Positions 991 to 33,416 of a stretch of DNA of 64,000 nucleotides are shown piece after piece. The stretch lies in assembly GCA_965217775.1 (NCBI GenBank), contig CBDCJH010000002.1, positions 416,001-480,000 of the forward strand. Reading direction: 5' to 3'. This stretch comes from Acidobacteriota bacterium. GTDB taxonomy: Bacteria > Acidobacteriota > UBA6911 > RPQK01 > JAJDTT01. Position numbers and translations under genes: made by a program. The notes below the pieces were generated by a model. It had not been told where the DNA came from, made no database searches, and was given only the letters and a program-made list of their open reading frames with translations. How positions within the stretch are numbered: the first letter of the stretch is position 1; each line of letters opens with the position of its first letter.

Positions 991-2898
991 AATCGCAAAT
1001 AGTCTAGCATCCTCAGGCTGGAAGCCGCCACGGTATTGGCCCGGACGGATTGCCTACTTTCGACACCGAAAATACCTTGACGGCTGGTGTCGGGGACTAT
1101 ACATCGAACGCCGCTCGTGACCGCATCCCAGTCTCTCTTGGTCGCAAATCCTTAGTTCAACCAGCCACGGAGGCCGAATTTCGAGATGCGTAAGAATGTC
1201 AACTTTTCTTCGATTGGGATCATCCTTCTTCTGCTGAGCTTCACCAGCACCTTCGCCCAAAGGACGACGGCGGAGATCGTGGGCACGGTGACCGATGAAA
1301 CGGGAGGCGTGCTTCCCGGCGTGGAAGTCGTGATCACCAATCTGGACACGGCTCTGACCCGAAGCACCTTCACGAACGATTCCGGAAACTACCACGTCCG
1401 CCTCTTGCCGGTCGGCCGCTATTCCGTCAGCGGCGAGCTGGTGGGGTTCAAGAAGCAGGAAATCTCGGGAATCATCCTCCAGGTGGACCAGGTGGCTCGT
1501 ATCGATCTGAGCTTGGAGGTCGGAGAGATCACGGAGCTGGTGGAGATGGAAGGCACGGCGCCCCTGACCAAGACCGACGACGCCGACATCGGGATGGTGA
1601 TCGAGAACCAGCAGATCGAGGAACTCCCTCTTCGAGGCGAGAACTCCTTCGTCGATCTGGTCTCGCTGGATGCCGGAGCCGCCAAGGTTTCCGGCCATTT
1701 GACGTCGATCTTCACCGATCTGTTCGGAGGCATGACGAACGCCTACGGCTCCCCCCCGGACGGGTCGAGGTTCATGATCGACGGCGTGGACGTGAAGGAC
1801 ACCGCCTATCCCGGATCGATATCCGTCTGAGCGGCAACGCCACCCGGGAGATGAAGTCGCAGATGAACTCCCATTCGGCGGAGTTCGGAATGAACAGCGG
1901 CATCCAGGTCAACATGGTGACCAAGTCCGGGACCAATGAAATTCACGGAAACGTCTTCTGGGACCATCGCAACTCGTCGGCGAACGCACGGAATTTCTTC
2001 GATCCGTCCCGGGAAAGCCGGGTCCGGGAGGGTCTGTCCGAAGTTCCCATCCTTCAATTCAACATCTTCGGCGCCTCGGTCGGGGGACCCATCGTCCAAG
2101 ACCAGACCTTTTTCTTCTTCAACTACCAGGGCACGCGGGAAAACAAGTCGCTCACTCGTCCGGCCAGCGTTCCCACCATGAAGATGAGAAACGGCGACTT
2201 CTCCGAGATACTTCCCGGAACGGTGATCAAGGATCCGTTGACCGGCCAGCCCTTCCCGGGCAACATCATCCCCGAGAACCGGATCCATCCGGTGGCCCGC
2301 AACATGATGTTCGGCGTGGGTGAGGTCAATCCGCTGTGGCCCGTGCCCGATCGTCCCGGAATCGCCAACAACATCCTGCCCAGCCGTGTCCAGGAGCAGG
2401 TCTTCGACCAGTACGTCTTCCGCGTGGACCACAGCCTCACGGACTCGGACAACATCTGTGTCCGATACATTTACGACAAACAGGACCGGGTCCTGCGCTA
2501 CAACAAGTTCCTTCACCAACTCCCCGACTACAACGACATTTTCTCCACGCCCGCCCACAATGCTCGAGTCGGTTGGACCAAGGTCATGGGGGCGACGGCG
2601 GTCAATGAACTGAAACTGGGCGTCAACCGCATGACGCAGACGCTGGAAGATGAGATTTACGGCACGCCGGTTCCGAAGCTCCTGGGAATCGAGGGGACGT
2701 CGACCCTGTTTCAATACAATCCCTGGGTGAACGTGGCTGGTTTCAGCCGGACCGGCACCCTCTTGAACGCTCCCAACAACCGTGTGGACAACACCTATCT
2801 CGCCGGAGATACGATCTCGTGGAACGTGGGTTCTCATGCCCTCGGATTCGGAGGCGAGTGGAGGGAGAGAGAGCAGAACGGGGGATCCCAGCCGATAC

Positions 2899-3012
2899 CC
2901 AACGGTTATTTTATGGGGCTTATATACCTAAGTGCCCTTGGCATACAGTTCTGGCACCACGCTTTCCCCAACGAGATACGTTCCGGTACCCAGGGCAAGA
3001 ACCCCAGCCCTG
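2899..3012 (-). ncRNA. Predicted TnpB omegaRNA core overlapping the tnpB 3' end and TIR, with putative guide 2899-2914
   Basis: Manual fold gives three stems and a loop GGGGUU complementary to the terminal AGCCCC; 5' boundary uncertain. Confidence 0.6.
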
Positions 3013-4103
3013 AGAATGTTCAGGGCGGCATTGTGGTCCCTGTCCATTCCAAGTCCGCAGGCCCTGCACCGGAAGGTTTCGCTCCGCCCTGGATCGTGGC
3101 GGGCGCCGCACCGGTGGCAGTCCTGCGATGTAAATGCGGGATTCACTTCTACGAACTTCCGACCGGCCCATTCTGCCTTGTACTGGATTTGATTCCGCAG
3201 AAGCCCCCAGGATTGCGTCAGTATTTCTCGATTCAGCCCCTTCTTCTTCGAGCCCTTCGTTACCATCCCTTGGATGTTCAGCTTCTCCACAGCGATCAGA
3301 CCGTGCTCACGAATGATCCTGCTGGAGAGACGATGGCAGGCATTACGGTTTCGGACCGATTCCCGGTGACGGAGCCGAGATAGCTGTACGATCCGCTTCC
3401 GTCTGGTCTTGGAAATCTTCTTGCACCTGGAGACCTTTCTCTGCTGCTTTCGGATCTCCCCCCAGTCCCGTCGATTCCGTTCGATCCTCTCACCCGTGGA
3501 CAGCACCGCTCGCTTGCGGACGCCCAGGTCGATCCCTACCGAAGACTCGCATTTCGGTAGCGGCGGCTTCTCCACCTCGTACGTCAGGTCCACATACACC
3601 CGGTTCGGCTTGCGGACAATCCGCAACGCTTTCAACGGGCATCCGTCCGGCAACGGCCGGGACGGAAATATCCGGATCGTCGGGAAGCCCTTGGGCCGGA
3701 TGGCGTAGCCCCGAGCGCGCTTCTTCACCAGGGTCGCTTTGGGGTCGACGACGTCGATGGTCTCCATCCTCGCCAGGGGCCGGAATCGAGGATACCCCGG
3801 CTTCTCCCCCGCCTTGCAGCGACGGAAAAACGCCTTGAAGGCCCGGTCCAACCGCATCAACATCCCACGCTCCGCCTTGACCGCCACCGACCCGAGCCCC
3901 TCCGGATCGTCCTTCCTCTGGGAGGTCAACCCCTTCATCTGATCGTACAGGGTCACGCCGCGTTGCTCGGATTCCCAGGCCGTCCTGCGTTCCTCCAGTG
4001 CAGCGTTGTACAGCCGATTCAGGATGGACCTCACCCCGTCCAACCGCCGGATTCCACCCTTGGACAGCTTGGCTCGGCACTGGATAGTTGCGTGGCCTTT
4101 CAT
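2928..4103 (-). CDS. tnpB: TnpB RNA-guided endonuclease, RuvC motifs intact
   Basis: LYNAALEER, AFKAFF..GEKPGYPRF, RuvC-I GIDLG, RuvC-II IAVEKL, zinc finger CHRC/CRAC, RuvC-III DRDHNAALNI. Confidence 0.95.
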   Translation of the reverse strand: MKGHATIQCRAKLSKGGIRRLDGVRSILNRLYNAALEERRTAWESEQRGVTLYDQMKGLTSQRKDDPEGLGSVAVKAERGMLMRLDRAFKAFFRRCKAGEKPGYPRFRPLARMETIDVVDPKATLVKKRARGYAIRPKGFPTIRIFPSRPLPDGCPLKALRIVRKPNRVYVDLTYEVEKPPLPKCESSVGIDLGVRKRAVLSTGERIERNRRDWGEIRKQQRKVSRCKKISKTRRKRIVQLSRLRHRESVRNRNACHRLSSRIIREHGLIAVEKLNIQGMVTKGSKKKGLNREILTQSWGLLRNQIQYKAEWAGRKFVEVNPAFTSQDCHRCGARHDPGRSETFRCRACGLGMDRDHNAALNILRAGVLALGTGTYLVGESVVPELYAKGT

Positions 4104-4116
4104 GGTCGGAATTGTA
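4104..4116 (-). promoter_or_regulatory. Putative -10 box (TACAAT) for a leaderless tnpB transcript
   Basis: Minus strand TACAAT-TCCGACC-ATG, 7 nt spacing, no Shine-Dalgarno. Confidence 0.4.
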
Positions 4117-5821
4117 ACCCATCAGCCTGAATTCTCGGCACTTACGTATATAATCCCCTATTTTATCTTCGCCCCCGTCTACACCGGTTATGCCATGGCG
4201 GATCTGATGCTGGGCTATCACCGGACGGCCATCACGGGCCGGGAAGACGGTTTCGGAAACTACAGCCACAACAACGTCAGTATCCACTTCAAGGACACCT
4301 GGAAGGTCAGCTCCAAGGTGACTCTGGACCTGGGCCTGCGCTGGGACTACTTCTCACCCTATACCGATTCGAGAGATCGGATCTCGCAGTTCGATCCGGG
4401 TTCGGGATTGCTGATTCTGGTGGGTGATCCGCGCCCGACCGACGCTTCCCACTATGCATTGCCGGCGGAATACGGCGTTGCCGAGCGCATGCTCTCTCCG
4501 TTGATCTCGGACGCGAGCTGGCCTCATGGAAGGCTGCTTCAGGCGCGCGACCTGAACGACTGGGCTCCGAGAGTCGGTCTGGCTTTTCGTCCCTTCGGCG
4601 GAAACGAGACGGTTGTTCGGGCGAGCTACACCCCTTTCGACACCTTCTACATGCAGCGGGTCGGTTTCAACAAGCCCTTCGTGAACCAGCAGACCTTCGT
4701 GAATCAGTTGGACGAGCAAGGTGTTCCCGTGTTCACCATCGACAGGCCGTTTCCTGAGGGCTCGGGTATTCCTTCGTCGACGGGGTAGGGATTTCAGCCG
4801 GATTGGGCCCACGGTTACAACCAACAGTACAACGTCACCGTGGAAAGAGCCCTGTCTCAAACCGCCGTCTTCGAGCTCGGTTACATCGGCAACAAAGGCA
4901 CCAAACTGATCCGCGACGGGAACCTGAACCTGGCGGCTCCCGGTCCCGGCAGCCGCGTGAATCGAAGGCCCTATCAGAATTGGGCGACCGTCGGCTGGAG
5001 ACAGCCCACTGCCAACTCCTCCTATCACGGGATGAGAGTCAATCTGAAGCAGGGATTCAGCAACGGTTTCCTGGGCAACATTTCCTACGTCTATTCCAAG
5101 TGGCTCGACTGTGGTGGAAACAACCTGTTCGCCGACCTGGGGGACAGCGTGAAGAGGAATCCCTTCGACTGTGCGGCGGAAAAAGGGCGCAGCGCTTCCG
5201 ATTACCGGCAGCGGTTCGTCTACAATTTCGTCTACCAGATTCCGGTCATGCGAGGATCCGGCCACGGACTTGCGGGAGCCATCCTGGGTGAATGGAACAT
5301 CAGCAGCATCGGGACCTTCTCTTCGTCCGGGGCGGTCGACGTCGGCAGTCCATTCGATCCCGACAACACGGGAGCGGCCAATCGGCCTGATCTCACCGGG
5401 AATCCGAACAGTGGGCCCCGAAACGCCCAGCAGTGGTTCAATACCAAGGCGTTCACGCGGGTTCCGAATCCGGCGGAAACGGGCGTCTACCGTTTTGGAA
5501 ACGCCGGCCGCAACATCATCGACGGTCCCGGCTGGACCACGGTCGACTTTTCGGTCTGGAAGTCCTGGCACGCGGCGCAGGAAGCAGTACGGATCGAGTT
5601 TCGAGTCGATTTCTTCAACATCACCAATCACACGAACTTCGATCTCCCCAATCGTAATTTCGGAACGGGAGCCTTTGGAACGATGGGCAACGCCGGGAAT
5701 TCGCGGCATCTTCAATTCGGCCTGAATGTCCAGTTCTAGAGATGTCGTCTCAGGCCCGGAAAGAAAACCTGTCGGCAAGTCCGTCTCGAATGGTCTCGAA
5801 TAAGAAGGAGAAGTTGAAGAT

Positions 5822-28328: not shown

Positions 28329-29418
28329 CGCCGGTCGGATCGGAACCGGTATCCATTCGTATTCGAATCAGTCGGGAATGACCGGCAGGACCACATGAGA
28401 CGGGTAGCGGTCATCGTGATAGATGGTCTGGGTCGCGACCTTCATCTCCGCACTCTTGCCCAATGGATTGCCGGTGTTCAAATTCCTGGCGAAACGTGGG
28501 AAGTTGCTGCTGGAAACCTCCAGCCGGATGCGGCTTCCCGGCTGAAACTCCCAACTCGTCTCCCAGATCTCGATTGGAATCTCGTAGACCCTTCCGGGTT
28601 CGATCAAGGTCGGATTTTCCAACGATTCCCGGAAGCTGGCCCGGCGGATCCCCTCACTGATGTGAATTGCCGTTCCATCCGCCAACACCTCGGTCAAGAC
28701 GGCAGTGAAATCGGTGTCGACCGCGCTGGAAGCGGCATAGAGCTTCAACTCGATGGGGCCCGTGACCTCCAGCTTTTGGGTCAAGGGCTCACTGGTATAG
28801 ATCAGGACGTCGTCCCGCTTCTGGACGGGCCGGCGGTCCTGAGGCCCTCTCTGGTCGGGAGGAAACTCGGTCTGTCCTCCCACGGTGGGGACGGGGTTGG
28901 CGGGATCGTATTGGAAGCTGTCTTGAGGAGCACCGTCAGGCGGGGGTGACGTTCCCAGGGTGCCGTCGCCAGGGACGGAGTTGGCGGCTCCGCCGCTATT
29001 CAGGTAGTACTTGGTCCACCGGGTGCGGGCCAGGGGCCATTCGTGCTCGTCACGCCACTTGTTGGCGCGCATCACGAACAGCCGGATGGGGGCCTCCTGG
29101 TCGATGCCGTTGGGGATGCCCTTGAGCCAATAGTCATACCATCGGACGTGCAACTCCTCGACGTCGAGAAGGGAGGATTCCCCAAAGTCGATCACCCAGT
29201 TGTCGTAGGTCTGATTGTAGGAATGGGACCAGGGTCCGACCAGGATCTTGGTCTGCTTCCGGGCCAACTCGGATCCCCCTTCCTCTCGAAAGCCGATGAA
29301 CTGCCGCCAGATCTCATGTTCCAGGTTGTCGTACCAACCGGTCAGGAAGTAGGCGGGGACCTGGATCTGGTCGTACTTTCCCTTGGGGATTATATACGAA
29401 AGTGCCGAAACCTGAGCA

Positions 29419-29601
29419 TTAACGCCGGTTCCGTGGCCGGTCTATCCATCTGATATTCACGGGCTGGACCAATGCACGGGCCAGCTCCTCGAAGTCTGCT
29501 TCCACGCGCATATCCGGTTCCAGTTCGGCCTTGGTCGGTTGGTAGGAATCCTTGACCAGTTCGATGGTGGGATGTTGGGGATTGTGTCTGGGTTTCTTCA
29601 T
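29419..29601 (-). CDS. 60-aa hypothetical IS passenger protein
   Basis: ATGA overlap with the preceding passenger ORF; ends 8 bp before the TIR. Confidence 0.55.
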   Translation of the reverse strand: MKKPRHNPQHPTIELVKDSYQPTKAELEPDMRVEADFEELARALVQPVNIRWIDRPRNRR

Positions 29602-30103
29602 GCGGCCCTCGGCATCCTAGGTTGTTTCCCCTCAAAGTAGTCTTCCGCCGTGTAGATTTGAATCTTGGGCAGGTCCATGAAGCGTCCGGCGTTGACGGCG
29701 GCATTTCTCATGCCGTTGGTCACTCGGTCTCGAAAGCAGGTGAAGATGCCGAGATCAGCTCCGGCCTGTCGACGTGCGCCGTTGAAGGCTTGGACGTGTC
29801 CGGGATTGGTAGAGCCGCCTTTGACCTGAGAAACGATGTCAATGAACCGGCCCTTGCGGATCGGGAGCCGTCCCACGCCGTCAATTCCGCCATCCCGTCT
29901 CTGGATTCGGTTCGGCTCCGTACCCTCCACCAGAGCAGCAGCCCACCTCTCAAACCGGAATTTATCGATGCTGGCAAGCTCCTGAGCGTGTGTGATGGTA
30001 TGGGGAAGGCCAATGTCTTGGGTGTGTTCCCAACGGATTCATCCGGGACATCCTCCCGCATGACTTCAAGGTGGTCTCCAAAGCTCAGTCGATTTTCGTT
30101 CAA
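29598..30103 (-). pseudogene. Internally deleted DNA methyltransferase-restriction endonuclease passenger gene
   Basis: NRLSFGDHLEVMREDVPDESV (MTase start, cut before DPPF) then, in another frame, DKFRFERWA..DGGIDG..IVSQVKGG (Mrr-like nuclease). Confidence 0.72.
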
Positions 30104-31050
30104 CCCACCAAATCCTTGTAACGCAGCCGCTTTCCCACCATCCGGTCAGCGACCAGGGCCATTTGATCCAACGTGTCCATGCGCCTTAGGTTGTGACGTG
30201 CGGCAAACTCTCCAACGTATCGGTCGGTGTGCTGTTCCGAGAAGTGGTGAAAGGTTCCGTGGTAACTCCGCTTCAACATCGACCAGAACGATTCGGCTCC
30301 GTTGGTGTGGCAGTTGCCTTTGACGTACTCCTGAAGAGAATGCTTGACCGTCTCGTGATTGACAAGCCGGCCGTAAGAGGTTGAATCGTCGGTGTAGATC
30401 TTGGCATCTTCTCCCACGTGCTCCAAGACGAAACGGGAGAGGGTTTCAGACTTGGTGTCAGGGACGACTCGGGCCGACACTTGGTTGGAGGGGCGATCTT
30501 TGACGGCAGCCACGGCCGTCTTTCCAACGGCTCCACGTCCCTCCAGTTTGGCGCGTTTGGCCTTCGGCATATTCTTCCGCTTTCCGCCGAGATACGCCTC
30601 GTCAGCCTCGACCGGGCCGGAGAACAGGGCCATTCCAGTCAGGTTCAGACCTTTCCGTATCCGGTGAGCAAGGTGCCAAGCCGTCTTCTGTGTTACGTCC
30701 AGGTCACGATGCAGCTTCATGGAGGAAACGCTCTTGAGGCTGGTAGTAAGGAGGTAGGTCGCAAGCAACCAAGTCTGATAGCCGAGTTTGGAGGACTGCA
30801 TAACCGTCCCGACCCGGACGCTGAACCGCTTGCCGCAATCGCGGCAACGATACGGCATGGAAGGATGCTTGGCTCCGGTCTGGACGTTGGTGGAGCCGCA
30901 ATGGACGCAACAGACTTCCTCCGGCCACCGCCGCTTTATGAACCATTCCTCAGCGGCTTTATCGTCGGGAAATCTCTTGAAGAATCCGCGCAGTGAAAGT
31001 CCCTCTCGGAACGCCTTTCCGGGTGCCTTGTTCCGTGTCTCGTAACTCAT
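30100..31050 (-). CDS. IS1595-family DDE transposase
   Basis: Zinc ribbon CVHC/CRDC, QKTAWHLAHRIR, VEADE, YTDD, HTNGAESFWS; GGAGG RBS. Confidence 0.96.
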   Translation of the reverse strand: MSYETRNKAPGKAFREGLSLRGFFKRFPDDKAAEEWFIKRRWPEEVCCVHCGSTNVQTGAKHPSMPYRCRDCGKRFSVRVGTVMQSSKLGYQTWLLATYLLTTSLKSVSSMKLHRDLDVTQKTAWHLAHRIRKGLNLTGMALFSGPVEADEAYLGGKRKNMPKAKRAKLEGRGAVGKTAVAAVKDRPSNQVSARVVPDTKSETLSRFVLEHVGEDAKIYTDDSTSYGRLVNHETVKHSLQEYVKGNCHTNGAESFWSMLKRSYHGTFHHFSEQHTDRYVGEFAARHNLRRMDTLDQMALVADRMVGKRLRYKDLVG

Positions 31051-31075
31051 TGCAGCCTCCTGACTTACAAGACAT

Positions 31076-31104
31076 ATTCTATAGGAAAGTACCGGGATTG
31101 TCAA
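31076..31104 (-). promoter_or_regulatory. Sigma70 promoter of the IS1595 transposase
   Basis: TTGACA-17 nt-TAGAAT on the minus strand just inside the TIR. Confidence 0.7.
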
Positions 31105-32093
31105 CCCCTACGGGAAACCTTTTCGGCACTTTCGTATATAATCCCCTTTCCCTTGGTTCCGTAGGACTTCCAGTAGTCGTCGTAGGTGGGGTGATCCAAC
31201 AGCGTCTTGACCCAGGGACGGTCCACCATCTCATCCAGGGCGGTGTAAAGGGGGAGCCGCGAGAAGATCTCGTTCCAGTCCATCAGGGGATGGTCGAAAA
31301 TGCCGGGCCAGAAGGCCATGCCCCGGTTGACCCAGAGGAACTCGGCCACGAAGATCACGTTCAATTGGGGGATGCCGTCGTTGTAGAGGTGACCGAAGTT
31401 GGTCTCCTGATTGGCGCTCGGCATCAGGGCTTTCAGGTTGGGATGCTGGTAACGGGCCGGCATCACCTGTGTGAAGCCGTCGTAGGAATGCCCGAAGGTC
31501 CCGATCTTCCCGTTGCACCAGTCCTGCTCGGCCAGCCACTTCTGAGTGTCGAATCCGTCCTGCGGGTCATTGACGTAGGGGTGCCAGACCCCCTCGGAGT
31601 CGTGACGGCCGCGGAGATCCACCGTGACCGCGGCATAGCCCCTTTCGGCGAAATAGACCGCCCGGCTCACCACGTCGGGACGCATGTTGTTGTAGGCGGT
31701 CATCAACATCAAAGTGGGGAACGGGCCGGGTGCATCCGGCCGGTAGATGTCAGCCGAAAGATGGACTCCATCCCGCATCGGCACCTTGGCGTCGAGCGAA
31801 AAAACGACCTTGTGCCCGGGTTGGGAGAGTTCGGCCTGTCCACAGCCGAAGACCGTAAACAGTAGAGAGGAAAACACCATCGTCACTATACTGGATCGCA
31901 GGTTGGTCTTCGCCTCGAACATCAGGCCGTCCTCCTGGAAGTGGACCGGTTTTGCGTTGACTTCGTTCCGGGCGGCATGGAGCCGCCAAAGATGTTGCTC
32001 GAAAAGCTGTTTTCTGGTCTCAGAGTCATCAGAATATATCATCCGTGCTGCCCCCCTGCCGATGGTAGTTGTCCAGCAGTCAGGAGACTTTCC

Positions 32094-33416
32094 ATGCATC
32101 GATTTTCAACGCTTATTCTGGGACTGATCTTCTTTGGCGCCGGCAGCATCGAGCCATCTCTGGCCGGGAAGCTGCGTGCCTCTTGCGTCAAGGTCGACAT
32201 CACTCCCGGCAAGCCTGTGCTGATGCAGGCCTATCCGAGGCCGGGTCCCTCGGAGGGGGTGTTGGATCGGATCTACCATCGGGTCGTTGCCCTGGACGAC
32301 GGCGAGACCCAGGTCTTTCTGATCTCCAGCGATCTGGCACTGATCCGTTACGACGTCTACCGCGAGTTCTCCCAAGAGCTGGCAAGGGAGACGGGGATCC
32401 GGCCGGAACAGGTCTGGTGGAATACGACCCAAACTCATTCCGGCCCACAGGTCGGCCTTGGACCTGAGGATTCGGGCACTTTCAAGGCCAACCCGGACTA
32501 CTCTGCCTGGCTCAAGAGAGCACTGATCGACGCTATTGTGGAGGCCCGAGAGAAACTGGAGCCGGCTCGCCTCGGCGTGGCGACCGGGATGTCCATGGCC
32601 AACATCAACCGGCGGCCCCGGGAGATCGACGGCAGCGTGCCCTATGTCGGATTGAATCCCGAGGGTCCGGTGGATCGGCAAATCGGACTGATCCGTCTGG
32701 AGCGAGCGGACGGATCCCCACTGGCTCTGATTGCGAGTTATGCCATGCACGGCACCGTCCTGCCCGTGAACGGTCCGGAGTTCCTCTTGATCAGCGGAGA
32801 TGCCCAGGGGGTCGTTGCCGAGTACGTGGAAGAGAAGACCGGAGCCCCCCTCCTGTTGATGAGCGGCGCCGAGGGGGATGTCGCTCCCATCTACAGCACC
32901 ATCACCATGCCCCATGCGAAGAACCAGGGGCTGAATCACCTCAGCCAGTTCAAGGTTTTGTTGGGCAATCGAATTCTGGCGGCCAATCGATCGGTTGCGG
33001 CAACGGCGACAGAGGTCAGGCTGTGGACAGGACGAATCATGATCGAGACTCCGCTTAAGGAGAAGCAGACCGTTTGGTACCAGGAGGCGATGCGCGGCTT
33101 GAAGCGGGAAACCGATGGCGGGGTGACGCTGGTCAGGATCCCGGTCGACTTCCTCAAGATCAATCGGGAGATCCTGCTCTGGGCGGCGCCGCTGGAACTC
33201 TTCGGCGAGATCGCCATGAAGGTCCGGGACCGGTCTCCGTTCCCCTACACCTTCTTCTATGGTTTGAACAACGGGTATCTCGGTTATCTGACCACCAGGA
33301 AGGCGTTCGCCGAGGGAGGCTTCGAGCCCCGCATTTCCCCGTATACCGAGCAGGCCGAAGAAGACTTTACCAGCGGGGTCTTGAACGCCGTCTGGGCGTT
33401 ACCCGGACGGGAGTGA
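32094..33416 (+). CDS. Neutral/alkaline ceramidase-like protein
   Basis: KVDITP, TQTHSGP, NINRR, YAMHGT, GAEGDV, NGYLGY; signal peptide. Confidence 0.72.
   Translation: MHRFSTLILGLIFFGAGSIEPSLAGKLRASCVKVDITPGKPVLMQAYPRPGPSEGVLDRIYHRVVALDDGETQVFLISSDLALIRYDVYREFSQELARETGIRPEQVWWNTTQTHSGPQVGLGPEDSGTFKANPDYSAWLKRALIDAIVEAREKLEPARLGVATGMSMANINRRPREIDGSVPYVGLNPEGPVDRQIGLIRLERADGSPLALIASYAMHGTVLPVNGPEFLLISGDAQGVVAEYVEEKTGAPLLLMSGAEGDVAPIYSTITMPHAKNQGLNHLSQFKVLLGNRILAANRSVAATATEVRLWTGRIMIETPLKEKQTVWYQEAMRGLKRETDGGVTLVRIPVDFLKINREILLWAAPLELFGEIAMKVRDRSPFPYTFFYGLNNGYLGYLTTRKAFAEGGFEPRISPYTEQAEEDFTSGVLNAVWALPGRE

Follow-up and report, generated by a model that had tools for sequence, protein, structure and literature searches.

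TnpB between IS1595-type ends in Acidobacteriota: a probably trans-mobilized element family with a one-sided, TAM-like flanking base

We identified, in a 64,000-nucleotide stretch of an Acidobacteriota genome (GCA_965217775.1, contig CBDCJH010000002.1, positions 416,001 to 480,000; the window hereafter), a tnpB gene that lies between terminal inverted repeats (TIRs) of the type found in the insertion sequence family IS1595 and is flanked by an 8-bp target-site duplication (TSD). Taken as a whole, the evidence is best explained, with a probability of about 0.72, by a non-autonomous IS1595-type insertion sequence that carries TnpB and an RNA as cargo, is mobilized in trans, takes its guide from the flanking DNA, and uses a G as its transposon-adjacent motif (TAM). 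Prokaryotic TnpB, the ancestor of Cas12 and a compact genome-editing nuclease, is typically found in IS200/IS605 (HUH) or IS607 (serine recombinase) elements, which lack conventional TIR and TSD ends. Its role, i.e., restoring the transposon after scarless excision, has been worked out for these HUH (IS605) and serine (IS607) transposons.

The element is 1244 bp long (window positions 2915-4158), with 22-bp TIRs and an exact 8-bp TSD. On the plus strand the order is TATTTTAT (2907-2914), GGGGCTTATATACCTAAGTGCC (2915-2936), the interior of the element, GGCACTTACGTATATAATCCCC (4137-4158), and TATTTTAT (4159-4166). Its parts are as follows:

2907-2914, no strand: 8-bp TSD copy at the tnpB 3' end, TATTTTAT on the plus strand and ATAAAATA in the tnpB sense, identical at 8/8 positions to 4159-4166.
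2915-2936, no strand: TIR at the tnpB 3' end (GGGGCTTATATACCTAAGTGCC), which holds the tnpB stop codon (2928-2930); 19/22 identical to the IS1595 TIR; homology among genome copies ends here.
2928-4103, minus strand: tnpB, 391 amino acids, RuvC D192/E273/D356 and zinc finger intact, from the open reading frame (ORF), Pfam, NCBIfam, and alignment to ISDra2 TnpB.
4137-4158, no strand: TIR at the tnpB 5' end (reverse complement GGGGATTATATACGTAAGTGCC), 21/22 identical to the IS1595 TIR and 24/26 when extended.
4159-4166, no strand: 8-bp TSD copy at the tnpB 5' end, read directly, matched to 2907-2914, and located at the empty-site joint.

The two 22-nt TIR arms are complementary at 20/22 positions (91%) and form the longest inverted repeat within 2800-4300. 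A pattern for the IS1595 TIR (at most 3 mismatches) matched the window four times (at 2915, 4137, 29385, and 31125) and was absent from 100 shuffles. The arm at 4137-4158 differs at one position from the TIR of an IS1595 element resident in the window and the arm at 2915-2936 at three. At the tnpB 5' end the identity to IS1595 ends after the extended 24/26 nt, and past the terminal 24-26 nt the TnpB element and the autonomous IS1595 have no sequence in common. The element is non-autonomous, because tnpB is the sole long ORF in it and no DDE_Tnp_IS1595 transposase is encoded. A preliminary description of the window had proposed a TnpB-only element of this length, with 22-bp TIRs, an exact 8-bp TSD, and an intact RuvC D/E/D triad and zinc finger, as well as a 21/22 match between its 4137-4158 TIR and that of the IS1595 element at 29385, itself bounded by an 8-bp TSD; all of these features were recovered.

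The TnpB protein matches Pfam OrfB_IS605 (PF01385) and Cas12f1-like_TNB (PF07282) and scores 215 bits against NCBIfam guided_TnpB (cut-off, 100), 164 against IS200_TnpB (under the cut-off of 425), and 127 against IS607_TnpB (under the cut-off of 350). Residues 31-375 align to ISDra2 TnpB (8bf8/8exa; E 3.5e-32), its best solved natural relative, such that D192, E273, and D356 stand opposite D191, E278, and D361, which we take to be the catalytic RuvC residues. The CxxC...CxxC zinc finger is located at 329-332 and 346-349. Both the RuvC D/E/D and the zinc-finger residues are invariant across seven lineages at 75-81% identity.

The 6.43-Mb genome from which the window is drawn contains 35 matches to the TIR pattern and none to a reversed-pattern control. 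Thirteen TIR-bounded TnpB copies were found in it, with TSDs that are all different (8/8 in 11 copies, 7/8 in 1, and 3/8 in 1); copies of this kind, with differing 8-bp TSDs, were what the preliminary description had proposed to look for. Homology from copy to copy ends exactly at the TIRs, with the TSDs lying outside. Among the first 11 copies resolved (two further copies were found later), pairwise identity is 95.1-98.8%, and the 391-amino-acid ORF is kept in 9. All 16 TNB-domain matches in the genome belong to the TIR-flanked TnpB clade. Contigs of all four public runs aligned to the region (two libraries recorded as RNA and two of unrecorded type from other studies) join position 2906 to 4159, with 1252 bases skipped and 8 ambiguous letters at the joint; the skipped bases equal the element plus one TSD, i.e., the exact empty site. 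The filled junction at 2907-4166 was bridged only partly (51 + 26 letters in record 3 of run X1, under a 31-letter rule). The element thus belongs to a mobile family, multicopy with distinct TSDs and an observed empty site.

A candidate helper is present in the same window:

29377-31154, minus strand: autonomous IS1595-family element, the presumed helper, with the TSD TTTCCCTT at 29377-29384 and 31147-31154 and TIRs at 29385-29406 and 31125-31146.
30100-31104, minus strand: IS1595 transposase ORF (PF12762, NF033547).
29419-29601 and 29598-29930, minus strand: small passenger ORFs within the 29377-31154 element.

Between its TSDs this IS1595 (29385-31146; 1762 bp) has perfect 22-bp TIRs, and its transposase carries the DDE_Tnp_IS1595 domain (PF12762; 1.8e-38) with an N-terminal zinc ribbon and scores 177 bits against NCBIfam transpos_IS1595 (NF033547; cut-off, 75). 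The genome contains five copies of the 1762-bp element, 98.3-99.9% identical and each with its own 8/8 TSD, in four of which the 335-amino-acid transposase frame is open. There are nine DDE_Tnp_IS1595 matches in this genome and only three weak matches to Y1_Tnp (PF01797; 39, 31, and 22 bits), none of them adjoining a tnpB. The TnpB elements and autonomous IS1595 have an AT-rich 8-bp target profile in common: among the 50 TnpB insertion sites described below, TSD positions 2, 3, and 7 are W (A or T) in 49, 48, and 50, respectively, and 21 autonomous IS1595 elements likewise have 8-bp AT-rich TSDs with W at these positions, which fits one transposase family choosing the sites. The terminal GGG(G/A)NTTATA is common to the TnpB clade and the IS1595 elements in five genomes. 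Because the terminal 22-26 nt and the target profile are shared, we propose with high confidence that the DDE transposase of the resident IS1595 (29385-31146) would cut and paste the TnpB element in trans. The preliminary description had suggested the same arrangement, and the genomic copies, the empty site, the five IS1595 copies, and the shared targets all favor it.

The architecture extends well beyond this genome. At the DNA level, the element was detected in 5 of the other 8 genomes of its genus and in none of the 52 searched outside it; alongside near-identical copies, the genomes of the genus contain lineages with an identity of just 71-83%. When one genome per species was scanned with a protein profile, 108 relatives were recovered. 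Of 45 loci with at least 42% amino acid identity, 39 have TIRs of at least 17/22 (GGG(G/A)NTTATA type), rather than the IS605 or IS607 ends that the preliminary description had named as evidence to the contrary, and 27 of these 39 have a TSD of at least 7/8. Most TIR-flanked elements of the clade have 8-bp TSDs (e.g., 7/8 in Binatia), and the groups represented among the loci are Acidobacteriota, Binatia, Bryobacterales, Dehalococcoidia, SAR202, and Caldilineaceae, the last with about 25 copies in a single genome. Among homologs at 25-33% identity, the TIR/TSD architecture was seen in 0/8 and 0/31 loci; the best inverted repeat of the latter 31, in an end scan run on 33 of 45 rows, was 13-16/18, with no TSD above 5/8. 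The neighbors of outgroup TnpBs at about 30% identity (37 ORFs at 14 loci) include no Y1 transposase; L106 has one MerR-type helix-turn-helix ORF upstream, DDE_Tnp_1 ORFs were found close to L118 and L126, and the outgroup TnpBs are mostly solo. A search of 1.84 billion representative proteins returned 795 representatives at E <=1e-30 among 22,917 detectable TnpB-like representatives, and the TIR-flanked clade is a modest subfamily of TnpB-like proteins. A metagenome scan gave 3 close relatives (42-47% identity) among 80 loci and no composite IS1595-plus-TnpB element. That TIR-flanked TnpBs form a clade, as the preliminary description had asked, is borne out by these comparisons. Its phrase "captured by an IS1595 end pair" says too little, as the distribution points not to a recent one-off capture but to an old, deep clade spread over several phyla.

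All of the roughly 52 bounded elements (1228-1445 bp) carry tnpB only. A transposase is co-encoded in none of them, so a gene-neighborhood census would not link the clade to a DDE enzyme; a TnpB-DDE partnership that exists solely in trans escapes such censuses. The genomes that carry the Acidobacteriota, Bryobacterales, Binatia, and Dehalococcoidia elements also encode intact IS1595 transposases. In the Caldilineaceae genome (G061; loci L077-L105), a single TIR type accounts for 67 ends; this genome contains about 25 TnpB elements (1.3-1.45 kb) along with derivatives that have internal deletions (222-1135 bp).

We compared the flanks of 50 unique TnpB-TIR insertion sites (11 in the window's genome and 39 in other genomes), with the elements oriented by tnpB. 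Six loci were left out of these statistics, namely L056, L057, and L062, which have no motif-based ends, and L074, L079, and L098, whose inverted repeats fall below 17/22; on visual inspection, the ends of L056 and L057 are TIR-like but degenerate, and their TSDs have decayed. The comparison revealed a constraint on one side of the insertions, represented in the window by a single base:

4167, minus strand: TAM-like flanking base, G in the tnpB sense (C on the plus strand), directly 5' of the TSD; 47/50 in TnpB elements versus 7/21 in autonomous IS1595, Fisher p 2.3e-7.

This G, located just before the TSD copy at the tnpB 5' end and designated G(-1), occurs at 47 of the 50 sites (binomial p 8e-21 against a G frequency of 0.31) and at 36 of the 37 where the TSD is at least 7/8; two extra copies in the window's genome, beyond the 50 sites, have it too. 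The mirror position after the other TSD copy is at background [C(+1) at 14/50]. By lineage, G(-1) was found at 21/23 sites in Acidobacteriota, 21/21 in Caldilineaceae, and 5/6 in the others. In the control set of 21 autonomous IS1595 elements (intact TIRs and TSDs, oriented by the transposase gene), the base is G in 7 and C in 10, and when both groups are limited to one shared TIR family and to two genomes that contain both, the difference is 13/13 for TnpB elements versus 4/12 for autonomous IS1595 (p 4.6e-4). Asymmetry of the TIRs is no explanation, because G(-1) persists where both TIRs are identical (L077, 22/22). The empty-site contigs do not differ at 4167, so the G belongs to the original target. 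A symmetric DDE transpososome should ignore the orientation of its cargo, and G(-1) is therefore best explained by something inside the cargo. At position -5 (window position 4171, tnpB sense) A is found at 26/50 sites and G at 3/50, a bias present in both the Acidobacteriota and the Caldilineaceae sets, and this position may be the outer limit of a 5-nt TAM window; characterized TnpB TAMs are 3-5 nt long. The occupied junction carries CCCC where the empty site has the G. To judge from these alignments, G(-1) looks like the TAM signature for a guide made of the TSD and the flank, and it may be a sign that the nuclease still senses the DNA around it. In the literature searched, we found no DDE-borne bacterial TnpB for which an orientation-specific flanking base had been reported.

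Such a guide would belong to an omegaRNA, for which the 3' end of tnpB provides a candidate:

2915-3040, minus strand: predicted omegaRNA scaffold, with helices at 3012-2991 and 2990-2953 (inner hairpin) and a terminal hairpin at 2947-2940/2928-2921.
2895-2914, minus strand: predicted guide segment (TSD copy plus adjoining flank, read through the 3' TIR), by analogy with IS200/IS605 TnpB.

A comparative fold of the last 130-160 nt of the elements (RNAalifold) gave 31 pairs, 13 with a compensatory change, for seven lineages (Acidobacteriota, Bryobacterales, and Binatia) and 23 pairs, 9 with a compensatory change, for eight Chloroflexota sequences. None of 500 shuffles attained the observed pair values in either set, and when the 3' partners were slid by 1-3 columns, the compensatory pairs dropped to 2-7 in the seven-lineage set and 1-4 in the Chloroflexota set. 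The last helix in both sets is formed by an upstream segment and the inner half of the 3' TIR, which leaves a terminal AAGCCCC or AATTCCC before the flank. In the window, the 3' arm of the predicted terminal hairpin is the inner TIR, with possible closing pairs at 3040-3038/2918-2916. The covariation in these predicted folds supports a structured RNA running from the tnpB 3' end into the 3' TIR. The scaffold of IS200/IS605 TnpB is described as ending at the transposon boundary (PMC10711439), so helices that reach up to the 3' TIR lie where an omegaRNA scaffold would be expected. By this analogy, we propose with moderate confidence that the tnpB 3' region yields an omegaRNA, the scaffold of which would end in the hairpin of the inner 3' TIR and the guide of which would be the TSD copy plus the flank. 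As a separate observation, run X9 (recorded as RNA) has a depth of 26.7-102 over 2914-3120 and 13.6 over the rest of the element, values that are contig depths summed over variants, possibly include DNA, cannot rank the parts of the gene, and are at most a hint of a small RNA in that segment.

In the working that we propose, the resident IS1595 transposase would recognize the shared ends and move the TnpB element in trans, and a transcript from the tnpB 3' region would leave the element, with the TSD copy and the adjoining flank as its guide. At an empty or precisely excised site, the target would follow the G that lies across the element, and this G would function as a minimal TAM; at an occupied site, the same target would be preceded by the CCCC of the TIR end, and the element would spare itself. 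The nuclease would therefore cut alleles that lack the element, and the break would have to be repaired from an occupied copy, which amounts to retention or homing. Copies beside a G would become stable sources, and others would keep moving or be lost. Retention of G-flanked copies would enrich G among the surviving copies, as observed.

Several points weigh against this working. Transposase-dependent movement is deduced from the sequences, and an RNA with defined ends and cleavage are predictions. Several lineages share only the first 12-13 nt of the TIR with any resolved co-resident IS1595, and the Caldilineaceae genome has no intact IS1595 transposase (best match, 24.7 bits) despite its 67 TIR ends; its TnpB family is orphaned, or its helper is located elsewhere. 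Only one flank position is strongly constrained, position -5 being mildly biased. The RNA structures were predicted from the same alignments that were used to count the pairs. A single-sequence fold of the last 200 nt was not significant (z -1.54), for which reason comparative folding was adopted, and an Rfam scan of 2700-4400 gave no match (the best, COG3860 RNA at E 0.73, is far under the gathering score). In two libraries recorded as RNA, the element is covered by contigs that continue past 2914 into other flanks; contigs, however, give no strand, ends, or level, and DNA carry-over is possible. A simple scan upstream of the ATG found no sigma-70-like promoter on the tnpB strand.

Some of these points would be expected if the element were simply a non-autonomous IS1595 derivative with TnpB as passive or decaying cargo, and if the transposition machinery or the host (e.g., its transcription or replication context) produced the G through a bias in target or orientation, namely, the transcript ends and cleavage that are only predicted, the single strongly constrained flank position, and the many copies that the Caldilineaceae genome keeps without a transposase. 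In that genome, G(-1) is also present in 4/5 of the deletion derivatives that lack tnpB, although these do not discriminate between the readings, because they retain the 3' RNA region and the deletion may have occurred in place. Passive carriage is nevertheless unlikely: the bias is missing from autonomous IS1595 elements that carry these TIRs in the same genomes, and it follows tnpB orientation even at perfectly symmetric TIRs; the ORF is intact in 9/11 copies that have diverged by 1-5%, with catalytic residues invariant over the seven lineages; and covarying RNA helices are kept inside the coding 3' end.

No likelier is a Fanzor-like arrangement, in which part or all of the 3' TSD would belong to the scaffold and the matching part of the 5' TSD to the TAM (e.g., G-A-W-W), with the guide starting within or after the TSD. 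Fanzors are described as reading the 5' TSD as part of the TAM, with the 3' TSD in the scaffold (PMC13565253), and right-flank nucleotides can be scaffold in IS607 TnpB, according to Yoon 2023 (PMC10711439). The constraint is indeed contiguous, as the G(-1) found at 47/50 sites is followed by A at TSD position 1 (38/50) and W at positions 2 (49/50) and 3 (48/50). However, W at TSD positions 2, 3, and 7 need not be part of a TAM, because autonomous IS1595 has the same target preference of its own, and a TAM or scaffold made of the whole TSD predicts the strongest constraint at TSD positions 5-8, beside the target, rather than 8-9 nt away.

An IS605- or IS607-type TnpB element nested in an IS1595 miniature inverted-repeat transposable element (MITE), or an assembly chimera, both raised against itself by the preliminary description, is scarcely credible, even though TnpB typically resides in IS200/IS605 or IS607 elements and ISDra2 TnpB is the best solved natural relative: the gap of 33 nt between the 5' TIR and the tnpB ATG and the stop codon inside the 3' TIR leave nested IS605-type ends no space, homology stops exactly at the TIRs, the Y1 transposase matches are weak and not adjacent, the IS200_TnpB (164/425) and IS607_TnpB (127/350) scores are low, and the multiple copies with distinct TSDs, the TIR-flanked unit in 5/8 other genomes of the genus, and the empty-site joint in four runs exclude a chimera.

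TnpBs within DDE-type ends have been described before. Altae-Tran et al. (2023, PNAS; PMC10691335) reported six DDE-associated TnpB branches (DDE-1 to DDE-6), all with inverted terminal repeats and with the tnpB 3' end usually no more than 250 bp from the transposon end, together with solo TnpBs whose ends almost match the ends of elements that bear a transposase, "mobilized by transposases in trans." Our elements resemble these branches in the position of TnpB within inverted terminal repeats, in the closeness of its 3' end to the transposon end, and in the solo form with its proposed mobilization in trans. Unlike those branches, they have IS1595 (ISXO2-like) as the partner, a canonical catalytic arrangement, and no transposase co-encoded in any of the approximately 52 elements. 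IS1595 and ISXO2 do not occur in the main text of that article; the branches listed in its supplements may overlap with our clade. A 2026 review of OMEGA systems (PMC13565253) gives ISL2, IS630, and IS1031 as DDE partners of prokaryotic TnpB, with IS1595 absent from those listed, and describes the associations as rare, a rarity that it attributes to inflexible TAM recognition. Literature combining TnpB with IS1595 or ISXO2, judged by title and abstract, contained nothing on a TnpB-IS1595 association; in one article the passage concerned is just a table of IS names. The possible novelty raised by the preliminary description therefore narrows: TnpB in DDE-type ends, solo and in trans, was already published (PMC10691335), and an IS1595 partner was not found in the main text of that source. 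The two findings new here are the covariation-supported RNA and the one-sided G. The TnpB clade is non-autonomous throughout, probably depends on IS1595, and bears a TAM-like footprint, but it is not a new category.

The element was also compared with other known systems. As in IS1341-type members of IS200/IS605, it is compact, with tnpB as the sole ORF and the transposase encoded elsewhere, and its TnpB is of the ISDra2 type. IS200/IS605 elements, by contrast, are described as having no TIRs or TSDs, inserting 3' of a fixed 4-5 nt motif, and moving by single-strand HUH chemistry (PMC13565253), whereas the present element has 22-bp TIRs, 8-bp TSDs, and variable AT-rich targets, and its genome offers no convincing Y1 HUH TnpA partner. 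The TIRs and TSDs, along with the low IS607_TnpB score, also set it apart from the IS607 family, although no search for serine recombinases was made in the genome. Fanzor and Fanzor2* are similar in that a TnpB-family nuclease resides in a TIR/TSD transposon, the guide RNA of Fanzors crosses the TIR into the flank, as predicted for the present element, and the TSD and TIR must be accommodated by the RNA and the TAM; these nucleases are, however, eukaryotic or viral, with a rearranged catalytic glutamate and TSDs that are mostly short and fixed (TA and TTAA), according to the accounts in PMC10711439 and PMC13565253, whereas the present protein is a canonical bacterial TnpB with a variable 8-mer TSD. 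With the IS1595 family it shares TIRs of the GGGG(A/C)TTATATAC type, 8-bp AT-rich TSDs, and a helper with the DDE_Tnp_IS1595 domain and N-terminal zinc ribbon. Unlike an empty IS1595 MITE, it carries an intact RNA-guided nuclease module, and unlike autonomous IS1595, it is subject to an orientation-specific flank constraint.

The locus is a well-documented bacterial case of a TnpB-DDE association, backed by 50 independent insertion sites, an empty site that was observed, a helper candidate in the same genome, and covariation in support of an RNA structure. The one-sided G offers a testable prediction of how TnpB adapted to a transposase that supplies no fixed TAM, and a TnpB for which one flanking base suffices would be attractive for editing applications. 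Going further, we tentatively consider it possible, if somewhat doubtful, that the clade is an obligate hyperparasite of IS1595 with a near-minimal TAM (a single G, with a weak A at -5) and with the nuclease as a ratchet. If so, the near-minimal TAM would let a flank-derived guide work at nearly arbitrary AT-rich sites chosen by the DDE enzyme. The ratchet would restore G-flanked copies after every excision, turning conservative cut-and-paste into net replicative spread, and would account for the G at 47/50 surviving insertions. The clade would then provide a natural, compact (391-amino-acid) canonical TnpB with a very relaxed TAM, and for the first time the function of TnpB in a bacterial DDE transposon would be legible from genome sequences.

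Some further observations concern the IS1595 elements and the insertion sites. Besides its transposase, the resident IS1595 has about 0.65 kb, including 29419-29930 (minus strand) with the two small ORFs, as a passenger. Its 110-amino-acid ORF (29598-29930) matches the restriction-endonuclease-like domains NA-iREase1 and Mrr_cat (1.4e-7 and 2.3e-4), and its 60-amino-acid ORF (29419-29601) gave no family match. This copy splits a gene for an X-Pro dipeptidyl-peptidase (S15), with flanks at 28499-29384 and 31155-32099; Peptidase_S15 profile positions 1-211 lie on one side of it, and positions 218-262 and PepX_C lie on the other. The window's genome (G000) contains two other IS1595-family elements, G000:C2:1021965-1023591 (1627 bp) and G000:C2:3648353-3649883 (1531 bp), with the TIR variants GGGGATTATATCCCAAAGTCAC and GGGGATTATATACAAAAGTCCC, and these TIR types also occur in genome G006. 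On a SAR202 contig, the 45%-identical TnpB of L079 has inverted repeats of another kind (GAGACGATTTCACAAAT...) on its two sides, possibly with a duplication of 7 bp, and downstream of it lies a fragment of a phage-integrase-family ORF; this TnpB may have a different mobilizing enzyme.

The TnpB element itself splits an outer-membrane beta-barrel (TonB-dependent-receptor-like) gene:

1851-5739, plus strand: interrupted outer-membrane beta-barrel gene, with Pfam OMP_b-brl_4 positions 1-314 before the element and 324-503 and 540-838 after it; the uninterrupted form is present in the four runs.

Downstream of the insertion, the receptor frame stops at 4786-4788 and resumes at 4840 in the same frame, where the Pfam profile jumps from 503 to 540, and the interrupted gene may be decaying further.

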